A DNA stretch of 25,029 nt. It comes from a virus (lineage: Duplodnaviria > Heunggongvirae > Uroviricota > Caudoviricetes). Position numbers: made by a program. The DNA lies in the IMG/VR virus record IMGVR_UViG_2671180435_000002. One strand, written 5' to 3'. Below are positions 3,001 to 6,000 of this stretch, in pieces (position 1 is the stretch's first letter; each line of letters begins with the position of its first letter).

Positions 3001-6000
3001 CGCACTACCAGCAGCCTCTGTCGCCTTCGTGGATGCCGTCGTGGCGCTGCCCTTCGCTGCTGACGCCTGTCTGGTCGCCTCATCTTTTGAAGCAGACGCC
3101 GATGATGCCGATGACGCCGCCGAACTGGCGGACGATGCGGCAGCCGTTTTTGAGGATTCTGCACGGGTTTCCGACGCTTTCGCGTTCGTTTCGGATGTCT
3201 TCGCTGCGGAAGCTGACCTCGCTGCTGCCGTGGCCTGCTCAGTGGCTTCGCCAGCCTTCGTTGTGGCTGTTGAAGCGGATGATGCGGCGCTTTCTGCCGA
3301 TTTTCCGGCGGCGGTGGCACTGGCTGAGGCCTGCCCGGCACTTGTTGACGCGGCGCTGGCAGACGACGCAGCCGCTGTTTTTGAGCCTGCCGCAGCTGAG
3401 GCACTCTGTCCCGCTGCCGTTTCAGAAGACCTGGCGTTCGTCTCGGACGTTTTGGCCGCCTTCGCAGAATTTGCAGCCGCCGTCGCCGAGGAAGCTGCGC
3501 TACTGGCGCTTGATGATGCGTTCGTTTCTGATGATTTTGCCGCCTCTTTTGAAGCCGACGCATCCCGGGCTGAGGTGGCAGCTTCTGACGCTTTCGTGGT
3601 CGCGGTGGATGCAGAAGTGGCTGCTGATTGTTGTGACGCTGCCGCATTCGTTTCTAACGTTTTCGCCGCACCGGCACTGGTAGCCGCCGCGCTTTTTGAG
3701 GACTCTGCAGCGGCAGCACTTTTTGAGGCTTCAGTGGCCTTTGTTGATGCCGTTCCTGCGCTGGAAGACGCTGACTGAGCCGACGAAGCGGCCTGTCCGG
3801 CTGACGTGCTGGCTGCACGTGCTGAATCTGCAGCATCAGTCGCATGGGTTGCCGCCTCACGGGCTGATGTGCTGGCATCGCTGGCTGATTTCTTCGCGGC
3901 TGCCGTGTTCTGTGCCACCGCGGACGCGTTACGCGCCACCTCTTCCACCATCAGCTCAAAACGGCGCAGTGCCTCCGGACGGGCATCATCCTCCGTCATG
4001 GCACCGAGAAAATCATTCAGCGTACCGGGTCGGGAATCTTCATACACGGTGATGGTCCCGGCATGTGACGGCGGGAATCCTTCCACCAACAGAATAACGC
4101 TGTACTGACCGTACTCAACGTCCATGCTGTAACGCCCGGCTTCATCCGGATTTTCTGAGGCCAGCGTGTTCACCACCACCGTGGTGCTGTTACGTTTTGC
4201 TTTCAGCTGGATTGTGCAGTTCTGTACCGGTTTTCCTGTGCCGTCTTTCAGTACACCTGAAATCTTTACTGCCATATTCACCCCACAAAAAAGCCCGCCT
4301 GAACCGGCGGGCTGTCATAACACTGTGTTACCTGGCTAATCAGAATTTATAACCGACACCCACGATGAAACCGTCAGTGCGCCAGAGACGTGTTGCTGTG
4401 GCGACCGTCATCACTTCCGGTCAGCACATCGTGCGTTTTCCCCTTATTGTCAGTTACGCGGATATAATCCCCGGAAAAAGTCGACACACGGCTGTAAGCC
4501 ACACCCGCCATCGCATACGCGCTGAACCATTCATTCACGCGCACAGACGGCCCCGCCATCACGCTGAACCAGCGGTTACGCACGGAATCTTCATGCCAGC
4601 GGGTATCGCTGTAACGGGTCAGCTGGCGATTCTTGTCTCCTGCATAGCTGAATGACGTCACCAGCCCCAGCGTATCCGTAAACTCATAACGGTATTTCAC
4701 GTTAATCCCGTTCAGATCATCACTGCCGGGAACGTTGGTCCGGGCATGAAGATACCCCGCGCTCAGCGTGGACTGATGTTCAGACGCCCATGCAGGCGCA
4801 CCGGATACGGCCAGGCAAATGGCTGCGGACAAAATGGCTGCACAAACTTTACGCATAATTACCTCTCGCTTTTCTGCAATAAAAAAGGCGTCATTCCTGA
4901 CGCCATTTATTGGGGTTATAAATATTTCAACGAATACTGATGCCGGAAGCCGCTTTTTTGGTCACAATCACCGTACAGTCGGTGATATTGCCTGCCCCCT
5001 GATTGCCTTTCTGGAAAATCTTAAACTCCAGAGTGACGCTACCACCACCACTAGGCATATCAATAACTGCACTGTAACTACCGGGAATGGCACCTTTAGT
5101 TTCTCTGGATGCGATTAATACGCCGTTTTTGCGAACTTCAAAACCATAACCCGTGTATCGCGTGCCTCCTGGGTTATTTCCGCTCCCCGGATCGTCATAC
5201 GCTATACCGTTAAAAATAATGGGCGGAATAATAATCTGGCGGTCAAAGTTATGATCATCGCTTATGGTGACTGTAACCGTCCCGTTTGGTGTTTCCGTGT
5301 TACCCCACGTACCAGCCTGTTTCGGAAATGATTTGGATACAGCTTTAACGAAGTCACCTCTGACCTGAGTCGCCTCCAGCATGCCCTTAATCGTACAGTT
5401 TTCATTTACCGTGACATTGTTGAGCGTCCCGGCGTTCGCATTCACACTGCCACTGATATCCGCATTTTTAGCGGTCAGCTTTCCGTCCGGAGTCAGGGAA
5501 AATGCCGATGGATTTCCACCGCTGGTAATGGTGGGGGCCGTCAGGCGTTTCAGGAACACGTCGTTCATGAATATCTGATCGCCCTGACCAACAAACATCG
5601 GTTTTGTGTTGCCATTCGCAGGATTAACCATCGCAATCCTGTCCGCCGCCAGCAGCACCTGACTCTGCATGCCGTCAGGGGTGTTCTCAATACCGGCACC
5701 AATACCCGCGATATAAAGGCGTCCGTCCTGCATCTGCTGCAGCTTCACAGCCCACATGCTGTTCAGGTTATTATTTGTATCAACCTGAACCTTCTGTATC
5801 TGCTGAATTGCCGCACTCTGGTCTTCCAGTTTCTTATTGACGGTCTGCGTGATTTCATTGCTGACATCCGTAATGGACGTCCTGATTTCAGCCAGGTCAG
5901 GCGCAAGCTGACCGTTATCAATCTGCGTCCACAGCTCCTGAGCCAGATGGGTTTTCCCTATCTCGCCTTTGAAAAAATCCAGATAACCGGATGCATCATC

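Follow-up and report, generated by a model that had tools for sequence, protein, structure and literature searches.

The J gene of a lambda-like prophage carries a receptor-binding domain of the phage 434 class

The h434 host-range allele of J has been in genetic use since the 1960s-70s, and its OmpC specificity is textbook knowledge. Phage 434 itself, as well as lambda equipped with the 434 J allele, binds OmpC instead of LamB (PMC3509688; PMC11101478, citing Fuerst & Bingham 1978), and the provenance of the h434 allele has been described (PMC9119081). AlphaFold3 models dock the trimeric 434 J on trimeric OmpC and predict three loops as porin contacts (PMC12502783). For lambda, the structures of the gpJ trimer and of its complex are known, and the pathway by which the porin LamB triggers opening of the tail tip has been shown (PMC11101478). 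The native receptor of phage 21 is likewise LamB, and one mutation in J adds the use of OmpC (PMC11336670). Moreover, natural OmpC variants differ in their susceptibility to the gpJ chimeras A8 and 1A2 (PMC11338833).

Here, we analysed the J gene of a 25,029-nt stretch of viral DNA (IMG/VR record IMGVR_UViG_2671180435_000002), termed the window hereafter. The window represents the late (morphogenesis) operon of a lambda-like prophage on the minus strand, in the order terminase, portal, head genes, tail genes, H-M-L-K-I, J, lom, side tail fibre and assembly chaperone. The place of J within the order H-M-L-K-I-J-lom-stf-tfa agrees with the annotated genomes of lambda, 434, cdtI and ev099, and the Pfam families of its neighbours are consistent with the lambda late operon. 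The ORF of J is undisrupted and encodes a protein of 1165 aa compared to 1132 aa for lambda gpJ, thus exceeding it by the 33 residues that an earlier, sequence-only reading had given; its translation also ends with the C-terminal peptide quoted there. Over its full length, the protein is 82% identical to lambda J (BLASTP) and 90% to 434 J. It contains six Pfam gpJ domains in the order found in lambda, each well over its cutoff, with Ig_GpJ_C as the last one. This is the full gpJ domain architecture, and the protein belongs to the lambda gpJ family.

Table 1 Features of J and of the genes downstream of it. Window positions count from the first letter of the window; codons and residues (aa) are those of J.
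Feature	Window position	Strand	Position in J	Details
Side tail fibre assembly chaperone gene	611-1192	-		ORF order
Side tail fibre gene	1192-4281	-		ORF order
lom, 434-type	4374-4856	-		truncated to 160 aa by an 83-nt deletion; alignment with cdtI, ev099, 434 and lambda
Intrinsic terminator hairpin	4887-4904	-		just 3' of the J stop; 7-bp stem GGCGTCA/TGACGCC, then TTTTTTATT; terminator scan
Gene J (tail tip attachment / central tail fibre protein)	4927-8424	-	1165 aa + stop	ORF list and translation
Hub and FNIII segment	8424-6010		codons 1-805	to lambda: 95.7% nt, 97% aa
Shaft block	6009-5590	-	codons 806-945	to lambda: 64.6% nt, 51% aa
28 extra residues relative to lambda and 434	5827-5919	-	within codons 836-866	84 nt; aligned as 21 + 7 aa
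Conserved island (lower central straight fibre)	5589-5389	-	codons 946-1012	to lambda: 90.5% nt, 90% aa
Receptor-binding domain (RBD)	4927-5388	-	codons 1013-1165 + stop	to lambda: 54.4% nt, 38% aa
FNIII-A_GpJ			aa 86-207	Pfam
Phage-tail_3			aa 330-498	Pfam
Ig_J			aa 610-714	Pfam
Ig_J_second			aa 718-818	Pfam
Phage_Tail_Tip			aa 872-1000	Pfam
Ig_GpJ_C (PF12421)			aa 1029-1164	Pfam, 89.2 bits, cutoff 26.2

Two divergent blocks in J

The J genes of the window, lambda, 434, cdtI and ev099 were aligned, and identity was determined both by sliding window and by segment; J of phage 21 was joined to the protein alignment later. Relative to lambda, the gene falls into four segments (Table 1), namely a hub and FNIII part that hardly varies (aa 1-805), followed by a shaft block, a conserved island and the receptor-binding domain (RBD). 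The identity steps between these segments are well beyond chance (Fisher p = 1e-101, 6e-57 and 3e-21), with the first value obtained for the first 2415 nt of J (95.7% nt identity) against the RBD (54%), and the last one for the step from the conserved island to the RBD.

These borders differ in part from those proposed from the sequence. Collinearity with lambda, put at about 950 residues, holds for only 805 of them, with the first divergent block occupying aa 806-945. The difference assigned to the last ~150-200 residues applies to the final 153 aa, which are only 38-39% identical to lambda, and does not extend to the lambda-like island that precedes them. Likewise, only ~460 nt (4927-5388) of the interval 4927-5530 are divergent, while its upper 110-140 nt (5389-5530) form a lambda-like linker. 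The alignment did recover the expected C-terminal break, as dense mismatches to lambda begin at J nt 3005-3036 (window 5420-5389), together with the second divergent block upstream. The island between the two blocks includes F952, the counterpart of lambda F924. Finally, the extra length of J had been placed in its C-terminal region, and an RBD harboring all 33 additional residues is ruled out by the alignment to lambda: 28 of them sit in the upstream shaft block, and the RBD contributes a net 5.

The shaft block shows 97-98% aa identity to phage 21 and cdtI compared to 51-52% to lambda and 434, forming a mosaic block of its own that is of the phage 21 / cdtI type and independent of the RBD. 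Following the naming of the lambda structure (PMC11101478), it covers the alpha-helical shaft and the top of the central straight fibre. This long form of the shaft block is present in 67 phage records, some of which carry other RBD classes (21, Stx 1717, PPompW, Lambda_ev203 and PhiR46_1). The 28 residues by which it exceeds the short form correspond in length to four heptads and lie within a long helix predicted at low confidence. An AlphaFold2 single-sequence monomer model of aa 800-1165 (mean pLDDT 44.8, pTM 0.33) presents aa 843-877 as one helix. In the best heptad register of aa 840-885, 62% of the a/d positions are hydrophobic compared to 35% of the residues across the segment, a modest periodicity. 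If helical, the insertion would make the shaft roughly 4 nm longer.

The receptor-binding domain and its allele class

The RBD of the window is homologous to that of lambda, as judged from its match to Pfam Ig_GpJ_C ('Tip attachment protein J, C-terminal receptor binding domain'). A homology search with the last 200 aa of J retrieved from the PDB the lambda gpJ chains 8xcj and 8iyk as well as 'A8 gpJ 713' (9wca/9wcb). Despite this common fold family, the C-terminus is not conserved with lambda J, in line with what had been proposed (38% aa and 54% nt identity). Only 55 of 144 aligned residues are identical to lambda gpJ ~985-1132, with 13 gap positions, and the window J lacks the close identity that would place it in the lambda-type, LamB-binding RBD class. 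Three indels of +2, +6/+7 and -6 aa separate the two domains. They fall between the conserved framework motifs FP.., DD..FDRQ, NG, DMP.G.G and KK...GIS, a pattern that would fit the replacement of loops on a conserved Ig-like scaffold.

A very different picture emerges from the comparison with phage 434. The two RBDs are identical at 146 of 153 residues (95.4%) and 438 of 459 nucleotides (95.4%), with seven substitutions and zero gaps. By this high identity over the full length and the same indel pattern, the RBD belongs to the 434 (h434) class. It is also 98% identical to the RBD of phage cdtI at the protein level and 99.4% identical to those of phages Evi and 2B8. At the nucleotide level, the interval 4927-5530 matches 434, lambda h434 imm21, cdtI, mEp460, many long-tailed Stx1/Stx2c prophages and others with 93-95% identity over all 604 nt.

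Among phage genomes, the RBD identities are bimodal: 74 records reach at least 90% aa identity and 168 stay below 60%, with none in between. Fels-1 (45%), several Stx classes (38-43%) and lambda (36%) are among the records of the lower mode. This distribution argues for discrete allele classes, with the window in that of 434, and together with the sharp steps at the borders it rules out gradual drift as the source of the divergence. We therefore consider it highly likely that the 3' end of J carries the RBD allele of phage 434 (h434), which in 434 makes the tail tip recognise the porin OmpC rather than LamB. This RBD is the long-known 434 version, and the finding as such is ordinary and already known.

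That the RBD nevertheless still binds LamB, its divergence reflecting drift or antigenic variation in a conserved fold without any receptor switch, is highly improbable. Such a reading could draw on the Pfam family and the predicted strand pattern, both the same as for the lambda RBD, and on phage 21, whose RBD is 48% identical to that of lambda and yet natively uses LamB (PMC11336670). It is opposed by the distance from lambda described above, including the three indels, and by the 95% identity to the RBD of 434, which gives lambda OmpC dependence (PMC3509688, PMC11101478).

Within the 434 class, the differences of the window RBD from cdtI and 434 are mostly synonymous, with 28 nucleotide but only 3 amino acid differences from cdtI. 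Such variation suggests purifying selection and would favour a conserved function.

Cassette exchange, downstream sequence and distribution

The two variable blocks of J occur in several combinations. The 434-type RBD accompanies the short shaft in 434, mEp460 and Evi but the long one in the window, cdtI and ev099; lambda joins a short shaft to the lambda RBD, and phage 21 a long shaft to the 21 RBD. As all four shaft/RBD allele combinations exist, the blocks assort independently, with recombination in the conserved island between them. Engineered gpJ chimeras were joined at lambda aa 964 (PMC11338833), which corresponds to aa 992 of the window J and lies inside this island. The patchwork of J is a classic case of lambdoid phages exchanging cassettes at conserved linkers.

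The exchanged sequence does not end with J. An intrinsic terminator follows the stop codon (Table 1), and in phage 434 a terminator is annotated at the corresponding position after J. Between J and lom and in lom itself, the sequence can be aligned to 434, cdtI and ev099 but not to lambda, to which similarity returns only in the last ~60 nt of lom. The lom of the window is shortened, with its Pfam Ail_Lom match covering profile positions 1-159 of 199. The junction created by this deletion had no match among species-representative genomes. Since the non-lambda sequence spans the terminator and most of lom, the exchanged unit comprises RBD, terminator and lom. Most likely, this cassette was imported by homologous recombination, with one exchange point in the conserved linker of J and the other in the conserved 3' end of lom.

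To judge how common this allele is, we turned to complete E. coli genomes. The 434-type RBD DNA (window 4927-5394) is present in 2113 of 5426 genomes (about 39%) in up to 7 copies per genome, whereas the lambda-type RBD was found in 98 of the 5426, always with at least 99% identity. Five carriers of the lambda type among the matches listed were all laboratory strains (K-12, B and DE3 derivatives). Judging from these counts, the seemingly 'divergent' RBD is the common natural form, and the LamB-type RBD of lambda itself is a rare allele.

Accelerated point mutation in situ under diversifying selection might be invoked for the C-terminal difference in place of cassette import, given that receptor-binding domains are known targets of positive selection and that a few substitutions in J can give laboratory lambda the use of new receptors (cited in PMC11101478 and PMC11336670). 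We regard this explanation as barely credible in view of the sharp identity steps at the borders, the empty range of RBD identities between 60% and 90%, and the extension of the non-lambda block into the non-coding terminator and lom. The same RBD (93-99% nt) moreover occurs next to both shaft alleles of J and in the 2113 E. coli genomes. All of these observations fit the import of a cassette.

The exact J protein of the window was found in 4293 index blocks of public assemblies. Three loci encoding it are identical to the window over 9.5 kb, and HE616528.1 from Shigella sonnei 53G (PMC5447701) differs from the window at 3 positions. Among the complete E. coli genomes, no match above 97% to the 25-kb window was found. 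Based on the exact J protein and the near-identical loci, including that of S. sonnei 53G, the window is very probably a Shigella sonnei prophage.

Receptor specificity and relation to known J proteins

The mosaic join in J had been read as marking a probable receptor switch. Homology supports this proposal, because the RBD is of the 434 type and both 434 and lambda h434 use OmpC. The join thus marks a known receptor-specificity cassette, and the switch would be the classical one of h434, with OmpC as the probable receptor of this allele. Phages whose RBDs are 96-99% identical to that of the window (PhiR26_1, mEp332 and PhiR34_1) have E. coli K-12 MG1655 as their recorded host. We word the use of OmpC as probable because the domain differs from that of 434 by seven substitutions, because a single mutation sufficed for phage 21 to gain OmpC, and because the OmpC-binding RBD of A8 and the LamB-binding RBD of phage 21 are 82% identical. 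No receptor test of cdtI, ev099, Kati, PhiR34_1 or Ayreon was found in the literature searched, with the paper describing the PhiR phages lying outside this coverage.

By analogy to lambda and LamB, infection might proceed as follows. At its distal end, the trimeric central fibre bears three RBDs, whose distal loops would enter a trimeric porin from its extracellular side. Spreading of the RBD base would then twist the beta-prism fibre, the helical shaft would flip, the FNIII domains would be released, and the tail tip would open for DNA ejection.

Although the RBD is of the 434 type, its seven substitutions, perhaps together with the long shaft, could have shifted or broadened the specificity towards a particular OmpC variant (e.g. 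that of Shigella sonnei), towards OmpF or towards dual porin use. We consider this unlikely. Single J mutations do alter the receptor use of phage 21 (PMC11336670), and the A8 and 1A2 gpJ chimeras tell natural OmpC variants apart (PMC11338833). Exactly this J is present in S. sonnei 53G and in thousands of assemblies like it, while no complete E. coli genome contains the whole window at more than 97%. However, the mostly synonymous variation of the 434-class RBDs, the zero indels relative to 434 and the K-12 host recorded for phages with 96-99% identical RBDs all speak against a shift. Rather improbable, too, is that a 21-type shaft with 28 additional residues, a 434-type RBD with seven substitutions and fixation in Shigella sonnei together render this J functionally non-equivalent to that of 434. 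In that case, it might bind a second porin or an OmpC variant specific to Shigella, or its longer helical shaft might alter the signal from receptor binding to tail opening. The reading we prefer is that of a 434-type RBD with OmpC as its probable receptor.

As a discovery, this carries little weight, as swapping gpJ C-termini at the same linker has already been used to retarget lambda particles (PMC11338833). The gain lies in annotation: the RBD boundary is placed at window ~5389 and not at 5530, the extra length of J derives mostly from a separate shaft cassette, and the 434 type is recognised as common. For the prediction of prophage host range, the label '434-type RBD, probable OmpC' would be suited.

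Compared with known J proteins, the window shares with lambda gpJ (NP_040600.1; PDB 8IYK, 8XCJ and 8XCK) the six-domain architecture, the gene order, an RBD of a homologous fold family, 97% of the residues in aa 1-805 and 90% of those in the linker island. In contrast, lambda uses LamB as its receptor, its RBD is only 38% identical with three indels, and its shaft is 51% identical and lacks the 28 residues. The J proteins of Stx phage phi330 and of Salmonella Gifsy-1 are, like that of the window, lambda-like in that the N-terminal part is conserved and the C-terminal RBD diverges; in their case, the RBD recognises OmpC (PMC12502783, PMC12312913). However, their RBDs belong to other sequence classes: phi330 is reported to be 35-40% identical to 434 and lambda, and the C-terminal region of Gifsy-1 to be 18% identical to lambda (PMC12502783, PMC12312913).

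Phage 21 J carries the long shaft block of the window (97% aa). The A8 gpJ chimera (PDB 9WCA/9WCB), which targets OmpC, has its C-terminus swapped at lambda aa 964, in the same island as the natural join of the window (PMC11338833). We considered A8 as a further 434-type RBD and rejected this, as it (PDB 9wca) falls in the phage 21 class. Together, the RBDs of 21 and A8 make up a third allele class, whose identity to the RBD of the window is 42-45%, and native phage 21 uses LamB (PMC11336670).

Phage 434 J (OL657226, UMO75286.1) resembles the window in its RBD (95.4%), its hub and FNIII part (98%), the position of the J-lom terminator and the type of lom. It differs by its length of 1137 aa, by the seven RBD substitutions and by a lom that is truncated in the window. 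Its shaft is short and lambda-like, whereas that of the window has 28 aa more and shares 52% identity with it over aa 806-945. The phages cdtI, ev099, Kati, PhiR34_1 and Ayreon, like the window, combine the long shaft with the 434-type RBD and match its J-lom region (window 4300-8500) over the full length with 96% nt identity. The J proteins of cdtI and ev099 also comprise 1165 aa, and that of cdtI is 98% identical at the aa level in both variable blocks. What sets the window apart from this group is local micro-mosaicism, in that its RBD is cdtI-like over J nt 3037-3162 and 434-like over J nt 3186-3384.

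Mosaic blocks and alleles of J

The central tail fibre protein J carries a receptor-binding domain (RBD) of the phage 434 type, and we surveyed how common this type is among 5426 complete E. coli genomes. The 434-type RBD was found in 2113 of them. The LamB-type RBD of lambda itself is rare, as it was recovered from 98 of the 5426 (query L001:4458-4904, from the lambda locus), with every match at 99% identity or more; each of the five matches listed comes from a laboratory strain, a derivative of K-12, B or DE3.

A closer comparison of the RBD reveals that it is itself a mosaic on a fine scale. 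Its 5' third, up to J nt 3162, resembles cdtI (2 mismatches, vs 14 to 434), whereas the middle, J nt 3186-3384, resembles 434 (2 mismatches, vs 22 to cdtI). Very few of these differences change an amino acid, a pattern that suggests 434-class alleles recombining under purifying selection.

Upstream of the RBD, J contains a second mosaic block, which shares 97-98% identity with phages 21 and cdtI and 51% with lambda and 434. This shaft block co-occurs with several different RBD classes and is a mosaic unit independent of the RBD. Because it holds the insertion listed in the table, it also accounts for most of the 33 aa by which J exceeds its lambda counterpart.

Features in and around J, in window coordinates
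Feature	Window position	Details
Side tail fibre gene and assembly chaperone gene	611-4281	
lom	4374-4856	160 aa; deletion junction ~4385/4386
Terminator hairpin 3' of J	4887-4904	stem GGCGTCA/TGACGCC
Micro-mosaic tract in the RBD	5041-5368	J nt 3057-3384
Second mosaic block of J (helical shaft and top of the straight fibre)	5590-6009	codons 806-945
Insertion within the shaft block	~5827-5919	28 extra residues (four heptads)

Between the shaft block and the RBD, residue F952 of J (window ~5569-5571) is the equivalent of F924 in lambda J, and the phenylalanine is conserved within the motif QIFMNDVF. F924 of lambda J triggers HepS, a prophage-encoded abortive-infection nuclease, and Gifsy prophages carry an isoleucine at this position (PMC13043305). 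From its sequence alone, the J protein studied here would be predicted to trigger HepS as well.

Side tail fibres and probable host

An intact side tail fibre gene encodes 1029 aa with phage_tail_N, Phage_fiber_2 repeat and Collar domains; it is followed by the gene for a Caudo_TAP assembly chaperone of 193 aa. The phage should therefore carry side fibres in addition to the J tip.

Across public assemblies, 4293 index blocks contain the exact J protein. Three of the loci fetched with it (L005, L009 and L010) match the window without any difference over 9.5 kb, and the S. sonnei 53G locus (HE616528.1) shows 3 differences. Over the whole 25 kb, the best matches among complete E. coli genomes do not go beyond about 97% identity. 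The window very probably represents a prophage of Shigella sonnei.

The lom gene and the J terminator compared with related phages

Deletion of 83 nt between two direct repeats (CTGGCG) shifts the reading frame of lom and creates the new end '...NTSLAH*'; S. sonnei 53G and related assemblies have the identical truncation. In cdtI, Lom spans 199 aa; the truncated product lacks positions 160-199 of the 199 in the Ail/Lom profile, or its C-terminal quarter. The terminator that follows J also departs from related phages, as 434, cdtI and ev099 have the stem GGCACCA/TGGTGCC instead, yet its pairing is kept because the changes in the two arms compensate each other.
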